13,250 nucleotides of DNA from a virus: the UHGV virus genome UHGV-0070257, one strand, 5' to 3'. The notes beneath the pieces are model-generated. The model did not search any database. It saw only the letters and a list, made by a program, of their open reading frames with translations, and was not told where the DNA came from. How positions within the stretch are numbered: the stretch's first letter is position 1; the number at the start of each line of letters is the position of its first letter. The translations under genes were made by a program, and so were the position numbers. Of the stretch, positions 6,171 through 13,250 are shown one piece after another.

Positions 6171-6881
6171 ATGCGTCAGAAAATTATCGACGCCATTATG
6201 GCGCATGCCGCTTCTGAATATCCCCGCGAATGCTGCGGCGTAGTGGTGCAAAAAAGCAGGGTGCAGCGGTACATTCCTTGCCGTAATCTGGCAACCGATC
6301 CGACAGAGCATTTCCACCTGTCGCCGGAAGATTATGCCGCTGCCGAAGACTGGGGAACAGTGATTGCCATTGTCCACAGTCACCCGGACGCAACGACACA
6401 GCCGAGCGAACTGGATAAGGCACAGTGTGACGCTACGTTACTTCCGTGGCATATCCTCAGCTGGCCGGAGGGGGATCTGCGTACCATTCAGCCGCGGGGC
6501 GAGTTGCCGCTACTTGAGCGCCCATTTGTGCTCGGTCATTTCGATTGCTGGGGGCTGGTGATGAGCTATTTCCGGCAAACGCATGGCATTGAGCTGACGG
6601 ATTACCGCGTGGATTATCCCTGGTGGGAAGACAGTTATCCCGAAAACTTCTACCACGATTGCTGGTATGAATGCGGATTCCGTGAATTCAGTGGCGTACC
6701 GCAGCCAGGTGATATGGTTATCATGCAGGTCCAGGCCAATAAGTGGAATCACGCGGGAATTCTACTGGAAGGTAACATGCTGTTGCATCACCTGTATGGG
6801 CACCTCAGCCAACGTGTGCCATACGGCGGCTACTGGCAAGAAAGAACAATGAAGGTACTTCGCTATAAGACTCTAGCTTAA
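6171..6881 (+). CDS. K: tail assembly protein, lambda K-like (236 aa) with JAB/MPN metalloprotease and NlpC/P60 motifs
   Basis: RBS AGGAG; start overlaps the L stop (TGATATG). JAMM-type motif E...HSHPDATTQPSELD and Cys/His pair (DCWGL ... HAGILL) seen in the translation. About 37 aa longer than lambda gpK (199 aa). Confidence 0.88.
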   Translation: MRQKIIDAIMAHAASEYPRECCGVVVQKSRVQRYIPCRNLATDPTEHFHLSPEDYAAAEDWGTVIAIVHSHPDATTQPSELDKAQCDATLLPWHILSWPEGDLRTIQPRGELPLLERPFVLGHFDCWGLVMSYFRQTHGIELTDYRVDYPWWEDSYPENFYHDCWYECGFREFSGVPQPGDMVIMQVQANKWNHAGILLEGNMLLHHLYGHLSQRVPYGGYWQERTMKVLRYKTLA

Positions 6882-6887
6882 GCCCAT

Positions 6888-7331
6888 TTAGGTGGACTGT
6901 TCCCCTGGAATTTCCACCCCAAAACCATCCGCATCCCAAGTCTTTTCCCAGACTTCGTAACCTAACTCTTTTAGGCGACTAAAAGTTTTTTTGAAAACAG
7001 TGTTGAAATCATCGTCACTAAGTCCGTCCAACTCAAGATCGCTGAGATGAATATGGAATGTGGAATGACCAATCCGTACCTTTTTGTTGATCTCTGAAAA
7101 AGTCCTTTTGAATATTATTTCAGAGAGTTCATCCCTCGCTTTTTCAACAAGTTGAATTGCATCTTGAGCAGAAATTACTTCATCTTCACGTAATTCGCTA
7201 AGGAAGCTGTTGTCGAGACGTTGAACTATTTCAGCATTCATAGAGCGGTTATTGGATTTTGCTGCATCTTCAATTTTTTCTTTTAATTCAATTGGTAATC
7301 TTATTCTTAGTTGAGGATCTTCTCTGCTCAT
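6888..7331 (-). CDS. Arc/Mnt-family ribbon-helix-helix DNA-binding protein with about 100 aa acidic C-terminal extension of unknown function (147 aa)
   Basis: N-terminus PQLRIRLPIELKEKIEDAAKSNNRSMNAEIVQRLDNSF fits the Arc/Mnt RHH pattern (beta strand with alternating residues, then N-[SA]-E-I-[VY]-Q-R helix), by pattern recognition only. RBS GAGG 7 nt upstream of the ATG on the minus strand. Convergent with K, 6 bp apart. Confidence 0.75.
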   Translation of the reverse strand: MSREDPQLRIRLPIELKEKIEDAAKSNNRSMNAEIVQRLDNSFLSELREDEVISAQDAIQLVEKARDELSEIIFKRTFSEINKKVRIGHSTFHIHLSDLELDGLSDDDFNTVFKKTFSRLKELGYEVWEKTWDADGFGVEIPGEQST

Positions 7332-7366
7332 TTGGTTGCCTCACTCAAAAAGTTCACATTATGTAA

Positions 7367-7440
7367 ATTATGCCCCACGGTGGGGTTGACATCAATGACG
7401 CACGGTGTGACACTTTATGTGTCCCACCGTGGGGCATAAT
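7367..7440. promoter_or_regulatory. divergent promoter/operator region: two inverted copies of ATTATG-CCCCAC(G/C)GTGGGG, overlapping back-to-back promoters
   Basis: Arm 1 (7367-7385, attatgccccacggtgggg) and arm 2 (7422-7440, tcccaccgtggggcataat) are reverse complements at 18/19 positions, and each core is itself near-palindromic. Leftward promoter: -35 TTGATG (minus strand of 7390-7395), 17-nt spacer containing box 1, -10 CATAAT (minus strand of 7367-7372). Rightward promoter: consensus -35 TTGACA 7386-7391, 17-nt spacer, extended -10 TGtGACACT 7406-7414, which would place box 2 at the transcript start. Confidence 0.6.
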
Positions 7441-7450
7441 TGGAGGGGTT

Positions 7451-7618
7451 ATGGAAAAAGCTAAAGATATGTACCAGCGTAAGGTTCGATTTCCTGAAGA
7501 TGTCCGGTTGGCGATAGAGAGAAATGGGGAAGATGAGTGCCGTCAGTTCAATACTGAGCTCATCTATCAGTTGAGGAAAGCGTACGGATTAGAAGGGGGG
7601 AAGAGTGAACAAGCATAA
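7451..7618 (+). CDS. small Arc-like ribbon-helix-helix repressor (55 aa)
   Basis: SD GGAGGGG 7442-7448 then ATG 7451. Translation MEKAKDMYQRKVRFPEDVRLAIERNGEDECRQFNTELIYQLRKAYGLEGGKSEQA is comparable in size and pattern to P22 Arc (53 aa; RWP...NSEIYQR). The track start at 7370 would place the operator boxes inside the ORF and is rejected. Confidence 0.65.
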   Translation: MEKAKDMYQRKVRFPEDVRLAIERNGEDECRQFNTELIYQLRKAYGLEGGKSEQA

Positions 7619-7625
7619 AAACAGT

Positions 7626-7660
7626 GAAACCCAGGAGTGCGCGAACACCCTGGGTTTCTT
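7626..7660. terminator. perfect 10-bp stem-loop (GAAACCCAGG - 13 nt loop - CCTGGGTTTC) with U-rich flanks on both strands; candidate bidirectional terminator/attenuator
   Basis: Read directly: 7626-7635 is the exact reverse complement of 7649-7658. It is followed by TT on the + strand and by ACTGTTTTTAT on the - strand. It lies between the Arc-like gene stop (7618) and the first ATG of the next gene (7692). Confidence 0.45.
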
Positions 7661-7691
7661 ATCGAAGAAATCCTTGGCAGGAAATATCGAC

Positions 7692-8273
7692 ATGAACAGT
7701 GTAACGAAAGAAGAGCTGAACTTCCATGGCATTTCTCTGCAGCCGGCTCCTGATATCGATGGCATCTGGCTGACCGCTAATCAGATTGGTTACGCGCTTC
7801 AATATGCAGACGATAAAGCTGTTCAGCGAATTTTTGCTCGTCATATTGATGAGTTTACAGAAAAAATGACAAGGGTGGTCAAGTTGACCACCCCTGGTGG
7901 GCATCAGGAAACTAGGGTTTTTTCTCTACGTGGCGCACACATGGTCGCTATGTTTGCCAGAACTCCGGTTGCTAAAGAATTCCGACACTGGGTGTTAGAC
8001 ATTCTGGACCGTGAGGTATCTATTAACTTTCCAGTACCGAAGATGCTCAGCGATCGAGAAGTCCACGCCCACAATGCAAACGCAATGTTCGATTATTTCG
8101 AGATTATGTGTGAAGCATGGTTTAACCAGATAGAGCCAGCGTTGAGGGCGATTGAGTCTCCGCTCGCAGGCCGTCTTCACGATCGTTTCAATGATGGGGC
8201 CGCGTTTATGTACATGATTAAGACTCATGCTGAACTACAGCTTCAGGAAGGAGAAAGGCCAAGAATCTACTGA
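7692..8273 (+). CDS. antirepressor-like protein with Bro-N/AntA-type N-terminal domain (193 aa from ATG 7692; alternative GTG start 7605 gives 222 aa)
   Basis: Segment NFHGISLQPAPDIDGIWLTANQIGYALQYADDKAVQRIFARHIDE...PGGHQETRVFSLRGAHMVAMFARTPVAKEFRHWVLDIL fits the phage antirepressor N-terminal domain pattern (F.F...GE.W..A..I...L... ending F..WV). Family call is pattern-based, not searched. Start is ambiguous: GTG 7605 has a G-rich SD but puts the 10-bp hairpin inside the ORF. Confidence 0.6.
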   Translation: MNSVTKEELNFHGISLQPAPDIDGIWLTANQIGYALQYADDKAVQRIFARHIDEFTEKMTRVVKLTTPGGHQETRVFSLRGAHMVAMFARTPVAKEFRHWVLDILDREVSINFPVPKMLSDREVHAHNANAMFDYFEIMCEAWFNQIEPALRAIESPLAGRLHDRFNDGAAFMYMIKTHAELQLQEGERPRIY

Positions 8274-8296
8274 ATTTGCAATGCTGCAAATAGAAA

Positions 8297-8320
8297 AGCC
8301 GATAGTTAGGGCTATCGGCT
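8297..8320. repeat. perfect 9-bp inverted repeat AGCCGATAG-TTAGGG-CTATCGGCT between the two antirepressor-like genes
   Basis: Read directly. No T-tract follows, so it is more likely a protein-binding palindrome or RNA processing/stability hairpin than an intrinsic terminator. Confidence 0.4.
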
Positions 8321-8350
8321 ATCCATAAATCTGTCATAAGGGTCCAACCA

Positions 8351-9094
8351 ATGACTTCATTAAATTTAGCAGTAAATAGCGCTAATGTCACCGAGAAAAC
8401 CATTGATAGCCAGTACTTGCTGGAGATGGTGAATGCTGCGCGAAAGCAATGCGGTGAGCCGGCTGTCCGAAATAACAAGTTCATTGAGAAGGTTGTTGAT
8501 GAGCTTGAAGGGGAGACCTACACAAAAAGTGTAGGTCGTAAAAATGGTCAAGACATTGAAGTAATTACAATGTCTATCAAGCAAGCCCTCCGAGTAGCCG
8601 CTCGTGAATCGAAAGCCGTTCGACGTTCTCTGGTTGATAAGCTGGAAGATATGCAGGTATTACCAGCGATGCCAAAAAGCAACACAGGTATCACTGAGTA
8701 CCGATTGGCTAAGGCAGAACAGTTGAAAGCCCAGGCATTGGAGAAGAATATCGCGAGCGCGCGGGAAATCATTACTCTGCTTCCTAGATTGGATCCGATG
8801 GCACATCAGGTGCTCACGGCATCGTTGATTAATCCGCTTATTGGTTATGACGCCATCCCGTTACCTGTTATCGAGGAGCATTACCACACTGCGAGTGAGG
8901 TGGGGGAGATGCTGGGGGTTTCTGCTCAGAAAATTGGACGCGTTGCTAACACACACAAGCTGAAGACAGAAGCGCATGGCAAGTTCTTTCTGGACAAGTC
9001 GGCCTACTCAAGTAAACAGGTTGAAGCGTTCCGGTACAACACTAACGGAATTGATGCGTTGCGCCATCTGATTCATGGTGCTGATGTGGCATAA
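8351..9094 (+). CDS. phage antirepressor/regulatory protein, Rha-like N-terminal region and KilAC-like C-terminal domain (247 aa)
   Basis: RBS AAGGG. N-terminal TIDSQYLLEMVNAARKQCGEPAVRNNKFIEKVVDEL resembles the Rha-family pattern. C-terminal HYHTASEVGEMLGVSAQKIGRVANTHKLKTEAHGKFFLDKSAYSSKQVEAFRYNTNGIDAL resembles the Ant/KilAC C-terminal domain. Pattern-based assignment. Confidence 0.6.
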   Translation: MTSLNLAVNSANVTEKTIDSQYLLEMVNAARKQCGEPAVRNNKFIEKVVDELEGETYTKSVGRKNGQDIEVITMSIKQALRVAARESKAVRRSLVDKLEDMQVLPAMPKSNTGITEYRLAKAEQLKAQALEKNIASAREIITLLPRLDPMAHQVLTASLINPLIGYDAIPLPVIEEHYHTASEVGEMLGVSAQKIGRVANTHKLKTEAHGKFFLDKSAYSSKQVEAFRYNTNGIDALRHLIHGADVA

Positions 9095-9127
9095 ATTTCA
9101 AAGCAGTTAAAATGTTTTTGCTATCCC

Positions 9128-9155
9128 AACCCGCTTAACTGCGGGTTTTGTCGTT
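9128..9155 (+). terminator. intrinsic terminator candidate (AACCCGC-TTAACT-GCGGGTT then TTGTCGTT)
   Basis: 7-bp stem and 6-nt loop followed by a T-rich run, 34 nt after the stop of the 8351..9094 gene. Confidence 0.5.
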
Positions 9156-9204
9156 ACCGGATCCCTGCTACTCTTTTGGCAAATTAATCAAAGGTGATAG
9201 GGAT

Positions 9205-9630
9205 ATGAAAAAGACTTTGCTGCTTCTAATTGCGCTTAGCGTTGCTGGGTGTTCAACCACGGCGGTGAATTCTACCGTTGCAAAACAAGTACCATCTGAA
9301 CGTGTATTGCTGAAGGGGGCTGGTGACTCGGTGATAACAATTACACGAGATCAAGGATGGTTTGCTGGTGGTGGATGCTTTGTAGAAGTAACTATTGATG
9401 GAAAATCCTATGCAAGAATTGATACGGGAGAAACGATCGATATCAATGTTACATCCGGCCGACATATTCTAGGAATATCTGGCGATTCAAAAGGTAAAGG
9501 ATTATGTGGAATGCAGGTCGGACAACCACTCAAAGAGACTGCCACGCAGATCAATGCTCGTGAACATCAAAAATTCCGCATCACCGGAGATACTAATTCC
9601 GGACTTGATATCAGAGCATCAACCATATAG
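9205..9630 (+). CDS. predicted outer-membrane lipoprotein (141 aa precursor), function unknown; candidate superinfection-exclusion or host-interaction moron
   Basis: ATG 9205 with SD AGGTGA upstream. Signal peptide MKKTLLLLIALSVAGC with lipobox L-S-V-A-G-C and Ser at +2 (no Lol-avoidance Asp). Two further Cys in the mature part. The track start 9148 is a TTG upstream of the signal peptide and is rejected. Confidence 0.75.
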   Translation: MKKTLLLLIALSVAGCSTTAVNSTVAKQVPSERVLLKGAGDSVITITRDQGWFAGGGCFVEVTIDGKSYARIDTGETIDINVTSGRHILGISGDSKGKGLCGMQVGQPLKETATQINAREHQKFRITGDTNSGLDIRASTI

Positions 9631-9650
9631 TTCGAGTCATTTTATAAATG

Positions 9651-9675
9651 GCCACCTCCGGGTGGCTTTTTTATT
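9651..9675 (+). terminator. intrinsic terminator (GCCACC-TCCG-GGTGGC then TTTTTTATT)
   Basis: Perfect 6-bp GC-rich stem, tetraloop and T-tract, 20 nt after the lipoprotein stop and immediately before the gene I RBS. Confidence 0.75.
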
Positions 9676-9685
9676 GGAGAAGAGT

Positions 9686-10276
9686 ATGCAGCAAGAAGTT
9701 ATGACCCAAATTGAACTGAGCGGGATTCTTGGCAAAACCTTTGGTAAGACGCATCATCGTTTAATTAGCTCAACCCGAGAAGCCTGTCGAGCGCTAGCTG
9801 CAACAGTGAAAGGGTTTGAGGCCTTCATGAATTCAAGTAAACAGCGCGGTCTGACATATGCAGTTTTTCGAGGAAAGAAAAATATTGGGGAAGATGATTT
9901 AGGCTTTCCGGCGACAGGTGAAGTGATCCGGATCGTGCCAGTAGTTATTGGTAGTAAAAAAGCTGGCCTGTTACAAACCATATTAGGTGCCGTCCTTGTT
10001 GTAGCTGGCTACGCTTTGTCAGGTTTTACTGGCGGTGCAAGTATGGCATTGGTCGCACCCGGTGTTGCATTAATGGCTGGAGGCGTAATCCAAATGCTTT
10101 CGCCACAGCCAGCAGGACTTGCCAGCAAACAGGATGCCGAAAATCGGGCTTCGTATGCATTCGGTGGTGTAACTAACACTGCTGCTCAGGGTAATCCAGT
10201 TCCGCTTCTATACGGACGCAGGCGTATTGGCGGGGCGATCATCTCTGCTGGTATATACGTCGAAGACCAGCAATAA
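9686..10276 (+). CDS. I: tail assembly protein, lambda I-like (196 aa)
   Basis: SD GGAGAAG then ATG 9686. Translation ...GEVIRIVPVVIGSKKAGLLQTILGAVLVVAGY...GGVIQMLSPQP...GNPVPLLYGRRRIGGAIISAGI parallels lambda gpI as recalled (...IHIVPRVAGAKSGGVFQIVLGAA...GGVAQMLAPK...QGNVLPVLYGEMRVGSRVVSQEI). The track start 9506 overlaps the lipoprotein gene and the terminator and is rejected. Confidence 0.85.
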   Translation: MQQEVMTQIELSGILGKTFGKTHHRLISSTREACRALAATVKGFEAFMNSSKQRGLTYAVFRGKKNIGEDDLGFPATGEVIRIVPVVIGSKKAGLLQTILGAVLVVAGYALSGFTGGASMALVAPGVALMAGGVIQMLSPQPAGLASKQDAENRASYAFGGVTNTAAQGNPVPLLYGRRRIGGAIISAGIYVEDQQ

Positions 10277-10296
10277 CAAAATAATCTTCCTTTCAG

Positions 10297-10320
10297 GCTA
10301 CCTTATGGTGGCTTTTTTTA
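10297..10320 (+). terminator. terminator-like hairpin (GCTACC-TTAT-GGTGGC, one G-U pair, then TTTTTTTA) between I and J
   Basis: Its 3' arm plus T-tract (GGTGGCTTTTTTT) nearly duplicates that of the 9651-9675 terminator. Confidence 0.4.
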
Positions 10321-10330
10321 TGGGCGCAAT

Positions 10331-13250
10331 ATGGCTACAGCAATCCCGATTAAAGGCCGCAAGGGCGGCAGTTCCAGTTCACGAACCCCTACCGAACAGC
10401 CTGATGATCTGCAATCTGTAGCGAAGGCCAAAATCCTCGTTGCGCTTGGGGAAGGGGAATTTGCAGGGCAATTAACCGGAAAAAATATCTACCTGGACGG
10501 CACGGCGTTGGAAAACTCCGATGGCACCAAAAACTTTAGCGGCGTGACGTGGGAATTTCGCGCGGGAACTCAGGCACAAAATTACATTCAGGGCATTCCC
10601 GGTACCGAAAACGAAATCAACGTTGGAACTGAAGTATCAAGCGCAACAGCCTGGACGCGTACTTTCACCAACACCCAACTATCAGCCGTTCGCCTGCGAC
10701 TGAAATGGCCTTCTCTGTTTAAGCAGGAGGACAACGGCGATCTGGTAGGGTATTCCATCAATTATGCAATAGACCTGCAAACTGATGGTGGGACCTGGCA
10801 AACCGTTCTTAATACCAGCGTAACCGGCAAAACGACGTCTGGTTATGAGCGCAGCCACCGTATTGATTTACCGCAGGCTGGCAGCACCTGGACAATCCGA
10901 CTGCGTAAGATTAACGCTGACGCAAACAGCGCCAAGATCGGCGACACGATGACGCTGCAAAGCTTCACGGAGGTGATTGATGCCAAGTTGCGCTATCCGA
11001 ACACCGCGCTGCTGTACATCGAATTCGACTCAAGTCAGTTCAATGGTTCGATTCCACAGATATCCTGTGAACCACGTGGCCGGGTGATCCGAGTGCCTGA
11101 TAACTATGACCCCGATACGCGGACTTATAGTGGTACATGGCAGGGCGCGTTTAAGTGGGCCTGGACCGATAACCCGGCGTGGATATTTTACGATCTGGTT
11201 ATTACCGATCGCTTTGGTCTGGGTAATCGCCTGAGTGCAGCCAACATCGATAAATGGACGTTGTACCAGGTATCGCAGTATTGCGATCAGCCGGTACCGG
11301 ATGGAAAGGGTGGAAGCGGGACAGAGCCACGCTATACCTGTAACGTCTATGTTCAGGACAGGAATGACGCTTACACTGTGCTGCGTGACTTTGCGGCTAT
11401 ATTCCGGGGTATGACGTACTGGGGCGGTGATCAGATTGTTGCGCTTGCCGATATGCCGAGAGATGTGGATTACGCTTACACCCGCGCTAACGTTATCGAC
11501 GGACGCTTTACCTATTCCAGCAGCACGACAAAAACGCGGTATACCACCGCGCTGGTTTCCTGGTCTGATCCGGGTAACGCTTATGCGGATGCGATGGAGC
11601 CAGTATTTGAGCAGCCTCTGGTGGCCCGGTACGGATTTAATCAGCTGGAAATGACAGCCATCGGTTGTACCCGTCAATCAGAAGCGAACCGAAAGGGGCG
11701 CTGGGGTATTCTCACCAACAATAAGGATCGTGTTGTTTCGTTTGATGTTGGCCTGGACGGAAACATTCCGCAGCCGGGATACATCATCGCCGTGTCAGAC
11801 GAGCTTCTGTCCGGCAAAGTTATGGGTGGCCGCATCAGTGCTGTTAACGGTCGCGTGATAAAACTTGACCGCGTAGTTGATGCAGCAGCAGGCGATCGCC
11901 TTATTATCAATCTTCCCTCCGGTGCGTCACAGAGCAGGACTATTCAGGCGATTAATGGGGAATCAGTCACAGTCACCACGGCATACAGTGAGACACCACA
12001 GGCCGAAGCTGTATGGGTGGTTGAGTCAGATGAACTCTACGCCCAGCAGTATCGAGTTGTCAGCGTCTCCGATAATGATGATGGCACTTTCTCTATTACC
12101 GGCGCATGGCATGACCCGGATAAATATGCCCGTATCGATACCGGAGCCATCATTGACCAGCGGCCCGTGAGTGTAATCCCGCCTGGTAACCAGTCGCCGC
12201 CGGCTAACATTGTGATCAGCTCGTTTTCAGTGGTGCAGCAGAATATCAGCGTCGAAACCATGCGTGTGAGCTGGGACCAGGCGCAGAATGCTATCGCCTA
12301 CGAGGCACAGTGGCGCCGCAATGATGGTAACTGGGTAAACGTGCCGCGCAGCTCCACCACCTCATTTGATGTATCGGGTATTTATGCCGGGCGCTACCTC
12401 GTGCGTGTGCGTGCCATTAATGCCGCTGAAATTTCCTCTGGCTGGGGCTACTCCGAAGAGAAAACGCTGACGGGCAAGGTGGGAAATCCACCGAAACCTG
12501 TCGGCTTTGCGACAACGCCGATCAACTGGGGGATTCGCCTGAACTGGGGATTCCCGGCTAACACCGGGGATACGCTGAAAACGGAAATTCAGTACACCGC
12601 GAACAGTGATTTCTCTAATCCTCTATTGCTGTCGGATGTGCCTTATCCGTCAGCCGAATACACCCAACTGGGACTGAAGGCGGGACAGGAGTTCTGGTAC
12701 CGCGCGCAGCTGGTTGACAGAACGGGTAATGAATCAGGCTGGACCGACTGGGTTCGTGGTGTATCCAACGCGAATGCTGACGACTACCTGGGCGATATTG
12801 CTGATGACTTCCTGACGTCTGCAGACGGTGACCGCCTGACAGGCGACATTGATACCAACCTCGAAGCCGCATGGCAGAACGCGCTGGCCAACCATGCAAC
12901 CGTGGAACATCAGTGGGCGCAGTACGGCGAGGTACGCGCGGATATTCTGGTGGTTAAAACGACCATTGCGCAGGTCGATAAGGCCATGGCTGAAATGTCG
13001 ACGCAGGTGAAGGCGCAGTTCAATAATGTAACTGCCGCACTGGAGGACAAGCTTACTGCCGTGGTTGATGCTACCGGAGCCTCTGCGATTTACACCCTCA
13101 AAACTGGGGTCCGGATTAACGGTGTGATGTATAACGCCGGAATGTCGATTGCGGTGCTGGCGGAGGCGGGTAAGCCGGTAGTCACTCGTGTCGGATTTAA
13201 CGCCAATCAGTTCGTCCTGATGAGTGGCAGCGGTGATACGCAATATTCAC
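10331..13250 (+). CDS. J: host-specificity / central tail fibre protein, lambda J-like, N-terminal about 973 codons (3' end beyond window)
   Basis: ATG 10331 opens a frame with no stop to the window edge; it is absent from the ORF track because it has no stop in the window. Hand translation MATAIPIKGRKGGSSSSRTP...RYPNTALLYIEFDSSQFNGSIP...RVPDNYDPDTRTYSGTWQG...YCDQPVPDGKGGSGTEPRYTCNVY... parallels lambda gpJ as recalled. Fibronectin-III-like repeats at about 12180-12770 (...RVSWDQAQNAIAYEAQWRRNDGNWVNV...YLVRVRAINAAEISSGW...). Confidence 0.9.
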   Translation, partial: MATAIPIKGRKGGSSSSRTPTEQPDDLQSVAKAKILVALGEGEFAGQLTGKNIYLDGTALENSDGTKNFSGVTWEFRAGTQAQNYIQGIPGTENEINVGTEVSSATAWTRTFTNTQLSAVRLRLKWPSLFKQEDNGDLVGYSINYAIDLQTDGGTWQTVLNTSVTGKTTSGYERSHRIDLPQAGSTWTIRLRKINADANSAKIGDTMTLQSFTEVIDAKLRYPNTALLYIEFDSSQFNGSIPQISCEPRGRVIRVPDNYDPDTRTYSGTWQGAFKWAWTDNPAWIFYDLVITDRFGLGNRLSAANIDKWTLYQVSQYCDQPVPDGKGGSGTEPRYTCNVYVQDRNDAYTVLRDFAAIFRGMTYWGGDQIVALADMPRDVDYAYTRANVIDGRFTYSSSTTKTRYTTALVSWSDPGNAYADAMEPVFEQPLVARYGFNQLEMTAIGCTRQSEANRKGRWGILTNNKDRVVSFDVGLDGNIPQPGYIIAVSDELLSGKVMGGRISAVNGRVIKLDRVVDAAAGDRLIINLPSGASQSRTIQAINGESVTVTTAYSETPQAEAVWVVESDELYAQQYRVVSVSDNDDGTFSITGAWHDPDKYARIDTGAIIDQRPVSVIPPGNQSPPANIVISSFSVVQQNISVETMRVSWDQAQNAIAYEAQWRRNDGNWVNVPRSSTTSFDVSGIYAGRYLVRVRAINAAEISSGWGYSEEKTLTGKVGNPPKPVGFATTPINWGIRLNWGFPANTGDTLKTEIQYTANSDFSNPLLLSDVPYPSAEYTQLGLKAGQEFWYRAQLVDRTGNESGWTDWVRGVSNANADDYLGDIADDFLTSADGDRLTGDIDTNLEAAWQNALANHATVEHQWAQYGEVRADILVVKTTIAQVDKAMAEMSTQVKAQFNNVTAALEDKLTAVVDATGASAIYTLKTGVRINGVMYNAGMSIAVLAEAGKPVVTRVGFNANQFVLMSGSGDTQYS

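Follow-up and report, generated by a model that had tools for sequence, protein, structure and literature searches.

The stretch of DNA analysed here (the window, 13,250 nucleotides of the virus genome UHGV-0070257) carries a lambda-like tail cluster, in which we recognized the genes Z, U, V (with a Big_2 domain), G/T, the tape measure gene H, M, L, K, I and J. Between K and I lies an island, positions 6882 to 9685, in which a first-pass annotation had noticed five open reading frames (ORFs). All five are present, in the order and on the strands proposed (ORF list), and the suggestion that they are non-structural accessory cargo was borne out by presence/absence polymorphism at the K-I junction. 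The island is exactly the gap between K (stop at 6881) and I (start at 9686), since relatives place the start of I at ATG 9686, and its GC content is 0.38-0.48, compared with 0.52-0.60 in both flanks. The prophage is lambda-like and belongs to the Citrobacter/Kluyvera group; within its late (tail) operon, the island comprises two accessory units that are nested. The first, unit 1 (6882 to about 9160), is, on its sequence relationships, probably a mobile homologue of the secondary-immunity region immI of phage P22. Unit 2 (about 9160 to 9685), an older and much commoner cargo of the K-I junction, consists of a lipoprotein gene and the terminator belonging to it. The features of unit 1 are as follows.

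6888-7331, minus strand: mnt-like gene, 147 amino acids (aa); ribbon-helix-helix (RHH) repressor whose long helix (55-87) is followed by an additional C-terminal domain of beta-alpha-beta-beta type (about 88-142)
7332-7450, no strand: control region of 119 bp, with three CAC-N-GTG operators on two back-to-back promoters
7372-7385, no strand: operator O_L, CCCCACGGTGGGG
about 7395-7411, no strand: operator O_M, ATGACGCACGGTGTGAC
7421-7435, no strand: operator O_R, CCCACCGTGGGG
-35 TTGACA at 7386-7391 and -10 GACACT at 7409-7414, plus strand: rightward promoter Pant, read from the conserved layout
-35 TTGATG at 7395-7390 and -10 CATAAT at 7372-7367, spacing 17, minus strand: leftward promoter Pmnt, called by a promoter scan
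7451-7618, plus strand: arc-like gene, 55 aa, RHH; first gene of the rightward operon
7619-7692, minus strand: sar-like antisense RNA made up of two hairpins with a T-run; complementary both to the spacer between arc and ant and to the ribosome-binding site and start codon of Ant1
7692-8273, plus strand: Ant1, 193 aa, antirepressor-like; a Bro-N domain and, weakly matched, the C-terminal domain of P22 Ant
8297-8320, no strand: GC hairpin between Ant1 and Ant2, followed by a T-rich sequence on the minus strand only
8351-9094, plus strand: Ant2, 247 aa, second payload gene; called 'anti-repressor' or 'KilA' in annotations only; a possible helix-turn-helix (HTH) lies at about 176-210
9128-9147, plus strand: terminator-like hairpin closing the arc-ant operon, AACCCGC-ttaact-GCGGGTT then TTTTGTCGTT

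The resemblance to P22 immI had been proposed from the logic of the circuit, and our searches showed that it extends to true homology. The Mnt-like protein shared 30% identity with P22 Mnt (BLASTP, E 3e-12), with residues 1-81 spanning the whole of P22 Mnt, and 1mnt was its top match in the PDB; in the AlphaFold2 (AF2) model, helix 55-87 follows the RHH domain. The extra C-terminal part, earlier put at about 100 aa, comprises about 60-65 aa (residues about 88-147), the first 81 residues aligning to the entire P22 protein. The product of the next gene shared 24% identity with P22 Arc (BLASTP, E 1e-5), scored 18.8 bits with Pfam Arc (cut-off 20.4) and matched phrog_228, Arc-like repressor, at 3.8e-5; homologues 65-100% identical to it stand beside the long form of Mnt at about 70 loci. 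Judged by these matches, the 55-aa protein appears to be a weak but consistent relative of Arc.

An element absent from the first-pass annotation, a predicted sar-like antisense RNA, is both conserved and covarying. The Rfam model of sar (RF00262) matched the minus strand at 7623-7690 over its full length (1-68), with 31.2 bits and E values of 1e-4 to 1.5e-3; at the equivalent position it scored 97.8 in P22, 59.4 in an Enterobacter prophage (L091) and 44.8 in phage TL-2011b, all above the Rfam gathering score of 43. The RNA was predicted to fold into two hairpins followed by a T-run, with an energy of -33.2 kcal/mol (z -5.97). A covariance model of the family, built from six copies, found 56 places, each between arc and the first payload gene, and one extra weak match elsewhere in L163. 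In an alignment of 49 distinct sequences fitted to that model, 91% of cells were paired and compensatory changes occurred in 19 of the 23 pairs, a level reached by 0 of 500 shuffles; the covariation score was 0.416, compared with 0.233 +/- 0.010 in the shuffles and at most 0.133 with slid partners. A candidate promoter, Psar, has its -10 element (TACACT) at 7703-7698, at a suitable distance. The position of this RNA also bears on the start of Ant1, which was listed as an ORF from GTG 7605 (7605-8273). Because the sar-like match fills the interval from the arc stop (7618) to ATG 7692, we moved the start to ATG 7692, which is NCBI's call in relatives and most likely the real one.

The island had also been said to possess an operator/promoter region of its own, and the control region fits this description: it contains a perfect 19-nt inverted repeat (7366-7384 and 7423-7441), and the exact 12-mer CCCACSGTGGGG is confined to it within the window. 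One layout, O_L, -35, O_M, -10, O_R, recurred across 51 distinct alleles whose flanks diverge, with all three CAC-S-GTG cores kept in 39 of them. In the left part of the allele consensus, AATTATG-CCCCAC-N-GTGGGG (O_L) and TTGACA are followed by the near-invariant ATGACGCACGGTGTGACA(C/A)T (O_M, with the -10 GACACT included); in the right part, a short variable stretch precedes GCC(C/T)CAC-N-GTG(G/A)GGC (O_R) and the ribosome-binding site of arc. O_M is thus located between the -35 and -10 of Pant, where it also overlaps the Pmnt -35, and O_R is placed at the start of Pant, positions which we take to be those of the Arc and Mnt operators in P22; by analogy with the P22 layout, O_M may be bound by the Arc-like protein and the outer operators by the Mnt-like protein.

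The same region bears on whether the cassette might be an SOS-controlled, LexA-gated antirepressor module of the 186 Tum, N15 AntC or Gifsy GfoA type, since such antirepressors too lie outside the immunity region (PMC3121763). No match to the LexA box CTGT-N8-ACAG was present in 7332-7450, and one-mismatch matches in the window were at chance level (5, with 4.1 expected), the sole match in the island being inside the Ant2 coding sequence; a dedicated set of Mnt/Arc operators is present instead. LexA gating is therefore almost certainly not the explanation. The Gifsy antirepressors, considered as a precedent for the tail operon, were dropped as such, because their LexA-controlled locus lies beside dinI, 1.3 kb downstream of the replication genes, and not in the tail operon (PMC3121763).

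Arc and Mnt are model repressors and sar was an early example of an antisense RNA, and immI tends to be regarded as particular to P22-like podoviruses. Unit 1 shares with P22 immI the divergent mnt and arc-ant units around one control region (here 6888-7331 on the minus strand and 7451-9094 on the plus strand, 119 bp apart), a Mnt homologue that includes the helix after the RHH domain, an Arc-type RHH gene at the head of the ant operon (55 aa, with about 53 aa expected), a sar-type two-hairpin antisense RNA over the ribosome-binding site of ant, an operator lying within Pant between its -35 and -10 elements, a further operator at the Pant start, and a location inside a late structural operon, which in P22 is beside the tailspike gene. 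It differs in that Mnt has an extra alpha/beta domain of about 60 aa; in that a third operator, O_L, a copy of O_R, lies inside Pmnt; in that there are two payload genes, of which Ant1 has Bro-N in place of the N-terminal part of P22 Ant and keeps a weak P22_AR_C, and Ant2 is unrelated; and in that the host genome is a lambda-like siphovirus and the site its K-I junction.

Two phages have similar arrangements. Escherichia phage JEP4, a Lederbergvirus, shares the Arc-like gene, a sar-like RNA and homologues of Ant1 (37%) and Ant2 (64%), beside mnt and the tailspike gene, and since this payload pair stands where immI classically lies, it links the two-gene payload directly with immI. JEP4 differs in being a podovirus with a 189-aa 'repressor protein C2' gene on the left and a short mnt on the right. 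In the Salmonella siphovirus SPN3UB, gp19 to gp22 encode an Arc-like protein (minus strand), another Arc-like protein (plus strand), Ant and a 'transcriptional regulator', in the tail operon between the DUF6246 and tape measure genes; here the Mnt-type protein has 108 aa, and the insertion junction and the extra cargo are different. Neither record annotates the region as immI.

The RHH proteins could in principle be antitoxins or regulators and the downstream proteins toxins or effectors, so that the island would be a toxin-antitoxin, abortive-infection or other anti-phage defence module. PADLOC, however, returned only two weak partial matches, both to the Mnt-like protein (Csa3, E 3e-4; PDC-M01B, E 0.0098), and none for the other four proteins, and an NCBIfam search gave nothing relevant; the best match of the Mnt-like protein is P22 Mnt, and the conserved sar RNA and the position of arc indicate immI in particular. 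We consider a defence function very unlikely.

The payloads are less uniform in their evidence. Ant1 contains Bro-N (Pfam, 6e-9), matched phrog_245, 'anti-repressor Ant', at 9e-39 and Pfam P22_AR_C with 21.3 bits (cut-off 22.4), and shares 39% identity (E 2e-41) with the Ant of cassettes in Enterobacter prophages, for which a P22_AR_C match is on record. Ant2 is a strong member of phrog_1726, 'anti-repressor' (9e-77), is 64% identical to JEP4_17 from the immI region of a Lederbergvirus and 52% identical to an 'antirepressor' of Stx2a phages, and is unrelated to P22 Ant. Searches of Pfam at E <= 5, of its profile against the PDB and of ten homologues against Pfam gave sub-threshold HTH matches and one Rha-like allele. 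Of the two proteins described earlier as antirepressor-like, Ant1 has Bro-N, phrog_245 and the near-threshold P22_AR_C match; for Ant2 the label comes solely from the name of a PHROG, with no backing from Pfam, the PDB or NCBIfam. Compared with Citrobacter relatives, Ant2 has a mosaic breakpoint at 8873, with no DNA match over 8302-8872 and 95% identity from 8873 on; Ant2 alleles therefore have a common C-terminal domain and exchanged N-terminal domains, one of them Rha-like.

These observations leave room for a cassette in which the head is immI-like but the payloads are not antirepressors, being instead regulators of the Bro-N/KilA-N/Rha class, host-killing (Kil-like) effectors or anti-defence effectors, with some other target under control. 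Bro-N is said (Iyer, Koonin and Aravind, 2002) to be a DNA-binding-type domain shuffled among many phage regulators. Ant2 shows weak HTH-like signals at 176-210 and one of its alleles a Rha-like N-terminus, its homologues have been deposited as 'KilA protein' or 'hypothetical', and unrelated, interchangeable payload types (ORF6N, Bro-N/ORF6C, P22_Ant type and TL-2011b type) occur behind the same head. Against this, a true P22_Ant-type payload occupies the same slot in three loci (L130, L133 and L158), relatives of Ant1 have P22_AR_C, and the three layers of negative control (Mnt, Arc and sar) are those that P22 applies to a product harmful to lysogeny. We consider payloads of this other kind unlikely, though with a real chance of being correct.

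Several points weigh against an immI assignment and were taken into account. The extra domain of Mnt is without a P22 counterpart and without an informative fold match, and we know of no P22 equivalent of O_L. The promoter scan left Pant uncalled, and its -10, GACACT, is weak. The sar match in the window falls under the Rfam gathering score, and an alignment fitted to a covariance model favours the structure for which it is then scored. The P22_AR_C match of Ant1 is under the Pfam cut-off, no significant similarity to P22 Ant was found over the full length of Ant1, and Ant2 found no match in Pfam, NCBIfam, PADLOC or the PDB, including a profile search against the PDB. Finally, the primary immunity region of the prophage lies outside the window, so that no target repressor can be named. 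On balance, a P22-type immI switch with a separate lipoprotein unit is the reading that we favour for the whole island, and we regard it as likely.

Under this reading, and by extension from P22, the Mnt-like repressor would be made from Pmnt in the lysogen and would bind the near-identical palindromes O_L and O_R. On O_R, which covers the Pant start, it would keep Pant off, and on O_L, in the Pmnt spacer, it would limit its own synthesis. When a genome with the cassette enters a Mnt-free cell, or when Mnt is lost, Pant would fire and the Arc-like protein, Ant1 and Ant2 would be produced; the Arc-like protein would then bind O_M and turn down both Pant and Pmnt, and the sar-like RNA, by pairing with the Ant1 ribosome-binding site, would limit the translation of Ant1, including that from read-through transcripts of the late operon. 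Ant1, and possibly Ant2, may bind and inactivate repressors of the CI/C2 type, encoded by the same prophage or by co-resident ones, and the cassette would thus constitute a second immunity/anti-immunity switch. The antirepressor activity, the targets of Ant1 and Ant2 and the expression states in this scheme are all transferred from P22 and should be taken as provisional.

A further proposal concerns the extra domain. The long-Mnt cassette might be a self-contained mobile "anti-immunity weapon" hopping between tail-operon junctions, with the conserved C-terminal domain of Mnt sensing a signal and causing conditional release of the antirepressor, by which the prophage or its neighbours would be induced; the signal may be a small molecule or a protein made by an incoming or a co-resident phage. 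We regard this proposal as doubtful. If true, it would add a new input layer to the classical immI circuit, with a role in prophage competition, and induction would not depend on the dilution of Mnt alone.

The cassette is mobile and mosaic. Its closest relatives, in Citrobacter freundii and in metagenome contigs, have the order K, mnt, arc, ant1, ant2, lipoprotein, I, with the lipoprotein 99% identical to that of the window. In the Citrobacter relatives, the DNA flanks are 90-95% identical to the window, Ant1 is 83% identical and the sequence from 8873 onward 95%; the mnt-operator-arc segment is without DNA similarity and is represented by another allele, with a 118-aa Mnt-like protein, a 57-aa Arc-like protein and different palindromes. 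Such an exchange of the mnt-operator-arc allele within the same layout is the pattern expected of an immunity-specificity module. In Kluyvera cryocrescens, the allele of the window is present and colinear at 86% through 9213, after which a different lipoprotein allele begins. A DNA-level search of phages and E. coli genomes returned the flanks (K and I) and pieces resembling Ant2 only, and at megablast level the element was not found in complete E. coli genomes.

At the protein level the family is far more common. One protein 81% identical to the 147-aa Mnt was indexed in 1637 blocks of the collection, and in those Enterobacter/Salmonella prophages the genes for Mnt147, Arc55, Ant (Bro-N and P22_AR_C) and an ORF6N protein are flanked by a DUF6246 gene on one side and the tape measure gene on the other, within an unrelated siphovirus. 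Among 80 IMG/VR loci surveyed for the position of the cassette head, the positions were K-I (9 loci), H-M (4), I-J (1), after J (1), between the DUF6246 gene and the tape measure gene (about 30), between the major tail gene and the DUF6246 gene (2) and in TL-2011b-like podoviruses (13). The payload combinations behind the head were Ant1 with Ant2, Ant1 with ORF6N, a P22_Ant type with Ant2, a 364-aa Bro-N/ORF6C protein alone, and a 314-aa TL-2011b type alone. As judged from such homologues, the mnt-arc-sar head with swappable payloads is widespread, being present in hundreds of public enterobacterial prophages and occupying at least six siphovirus tail-module junctions.

Variants of the head, and other antirepressor-type elements, were seen in several of these genomes. 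At the K-I junction of L069 (Yersinia vastinensis; 9472-11131), a minus-strand gene for a 250-aa HTH (CI-like) repressor stands in the place of mnt, with a 69-aa Arc-like protein, a sar-like RNA (26.8 bits) and an Ant1-like protein; the left side of JEP4, annotated as 'repressor protein C2', resembles this variant. In Escherichia phage TL-2011b (L001, JQ011317), a P1-type c4 antisense RNA (RF01695, 77.7 bits) and isrK (RF01394, 76.7 bits), in the segments 1551-1749 and 1797-2492, lie upstream of a second 'putative anti-repressor', about 3 kb from the mnt/arc/sar cassette, so that one genome has two different antisense-controlled antirepressor systems. In phage mEp021 (L102, MH706966), 40127-43906 contains reverse-strand islands that separate the tape measure gene from M and M from L; in one of these a 'putative antirepressor' is annotated, which extends antirepressor-type cargo of tail operons beyond the mnt/arc cassette.

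Every component of the cassette comes from a known family and the circuit is that of textbook immI; what sets it apart from P22 is the extra domain of Mnt, the doubled outer operator, the payloads (Bro-N plus a second protein) and the site in a siphoviral tail operon. The suggestion that such a cassette may not have been described holds in one respect only. As an object it is neither rare nor new, given the hundreds of prophages, SPN3UB and the payload pair of JEP4; as to the context, we found no paper on immI in tail operons, although literature searches that gave no description of an immI-type cassette there covered an incomplete library and are a weak negative. The window and its relatives show the mnt-arc-sar head to be a portable control module that drives interchangeable payloads in unrelated siphoviruses, from within their tail operons. 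Should the payloads be antirepressors, many lysogens would have a two-part immunity and would be able to cross-induce their neighbours, with a bearing on prophage induction, gene transfer and prophage annotation; at present the cassette genes carry generic labels such as "Arc family DNA-binding protein" or "hypothetical".

The site of insertion and the second unit comprise the following features, the first and last of which are the boundaries and lie outside the island.

6171-6881, plus strand: gene K, tail tip assembly, left boundary; Pfam Prok-JAB 1.6e-22 and NlpC/P60 1.3e-21, phrog_30 1e-133
9160-9204, plus strand: right-hand junction of the cassette; a relic of the 3' end of K with its spacer precedes the slot's conserved ribosome-binding-site region (AAAGGTGATAGGGATATG); from by-eye alignment with the K-stop-to-lipoprotein spacers of L003, L002, L007 and others
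9205-9630, plus strand: lipoprotein gene, 141 aa, lipobox VAG/C (cleavage before C) with Ser at +2; resident K-I cargo
9650-9667, plus strand: intrinsic terminator of the lipoprotein gene, GGCCACC-tccg-GGTGGC then TTTTTTATT, directly upstream of the ribosome-binding site of I
9686-10276, plus strand: gene I, tail assembly, right boundary; phrog_32 3e-75

The assignment of gene I rests on this PHROG match, with Pfam Lambda_tail_I at 23.0 bits (cut-off 23.8), and its start, MQQEVMTQ, agrees with the 196-aa calls in relatives. The sequence at about 9160-9180 resembles the K 3' end and spacer; the cassette was therefore inserted between the K stop and the ribosome-binding site of the lipoprotein gene. 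At least three terminator-like hairpins had been claimed for the island, and four can be named (7626-7658, 8297-8320, 9128-9147 and 9650-9667), although their total is at chance level (5 found, compared with 3.3 +/- 2.0 in shuffles). The count was accordingly dropped as evidence; since the number alone is uninformative, what gives the hairpins meaning is that they stand at the ends of genes and are conserved in relatives.

We compared the K-I junctions of relatives, using 80 loci with K (69-96% identical) from species-representative Enterobacterales genomes, 78 of which have both K and I. The spacing was at most 72 bp in 14 of the 78, whereas 64 had an insert of at least 242 bp, mostly 400-550 bp and in eight loci more than 1.4 kb. 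The premise that K and I are normally contiguous therefore fails in this clade. A cassette of a regulator plus an antirepressor was present in 3 of the 78, two with the mnt head (L004 and L070) and one (L069) with the HTH repressor instead of mnt. This distribution bears on whether the five ORFs are simply conserved tail-assembly components of the lineage, as their position inside the tail operon and the conservation of a lipoprotein at the site from Enterobacterales to Pseudomonas phages might suggest. The contiguity of K and I in 14 of the loci and the rarity of the cassette at the junction speak against it, as do the occurrence of the cassette at different junctions in other phages and in podoviruses, the opposite strand of the mnt-like gene and the lipoprotein gene having its own terminator; the presence/absence polymorphism refutes the idea for the cassette, and for the island as a whole we hold it to be extremely unlikely.

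The lipoprotein had been taken as a part of the island unit, but it proved to be separate. Homologues were found in 46 of the 78 K-I loci, each on the plus strand and, where loci were inspected, directly upstream of I, and the family is also located between K and I in coliphage mEp390 and in Pseudomonas phages, with further members in SSU5 and Ralstonia phages; the mEp390 record has an annotated promoter at the 3' end of the lipoprotein gene. Going by these homologues, the lipoprotein gene is independent of the cassette and is the usual K-I occupant. Other K-I loci have unrelated small lipoproteins or membrane proteins as cargo. The junction is thus a routine cargo slot, filled as a rule by a lipoprotein conserved as far as Pseudomonas phages.

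Both flanks of the slot were conserved across cargo types in the loci inspected, with a 5' ribosome-binding-site region, AAAGG(G/T)GATAGGGATATG, and a 3' GC hairpin and T-run before I. In the window these lie at 9186-9204 and 9650-9685, and the same sequence and the GCCACC...GGTGGC hairpin were seen in the K-I gaps of L002 to L062. A hairpin with T-run equivalent to 9650-9667 was found in every inspected locus with cargo and was missing from the inspected empty sites, as were both flanks. Because of the 5' flank, the upstream-extended ORFs of unrelated cargo genes all read '...GDRDM'. These flanks look like recombination anchors for the exchange of cargo. No convincing promoter of the lipoprotein gene was found in 9148-9204, the only promoter-like site being 9086-9113, upstream of the 9128-9147 hairpin.

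A moron, as the concept was formed for HK97 and HK022, is a promoter, gene and terminator between genes that are adjacent in relatives. The island shares with lambdoid morons its position between genes contiguous in some relatives (14 of 78), a lower GC content, an own terminator, and slot flanks that are conserved with unrelated cargo elsewhere; it differs in comprising two nested units, one of which is a multi-gene regulatory cassette with an antisense RNA.

The lipoprotein model (predicted local distance difference test score, pLDDT, 81) is a beta-sandwich with two invariant cysteines, and its fold matches were generic. Ser at +2 suggests sorting to the outer membrane, so that the product is a probable outer-membrane lipoprotein, and its likeliest role, by analogy with other phage lipoproteins, would be in lysogenic conversion or exclusion. 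It shares with the exclusion lipoproteins (T5 Llp, Cor of phi80, N15 and HK022, and Lpp021 and Lpp010 of mEpimmI) the feature of being a small lipoprotein in a structural cluster near the host-range genes; the likeness to mEpimmI, Cor and Llp is one of gene position. The mEpimmI lipoproteins exclude phages experimentally, and their genes are within the structural cluster (PMC11893012). As a precedent for the position they were dropped, since K and I are contiguous in mEp021 and its lipoprotein is thus not at the K-I junction. A Cor/Llp-type blocker of the phage's own receptor was likewise rejected: lipoprotein identity did not co-vary with that of the last 250 aa of J in 28 loci (Spearman 0.12; partial r 0.02, p 0.66), and near-identical lipoproteins were paired with unrelated J C-termini and vice versa, which argues against simple blocking of this kind.

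Two further observations concern the surroundings. Upstream of the tape measure gene, the tail-chaperone ORFs at 1836-2243 and, in another frame, 2294-2572 resemble the G/G-T pair of lambda with its programmed frameshifting. In two of the Citrobacter relatives (L083 and L084, 14454-16034), the tail fibre genes are followed downstream by a pair of DinI-family genes and by genes for a hemerythrin-domain protein and an isochorismatase-family protein, beside aspS; these are further cargo at the prophage end, in a region outside the window.

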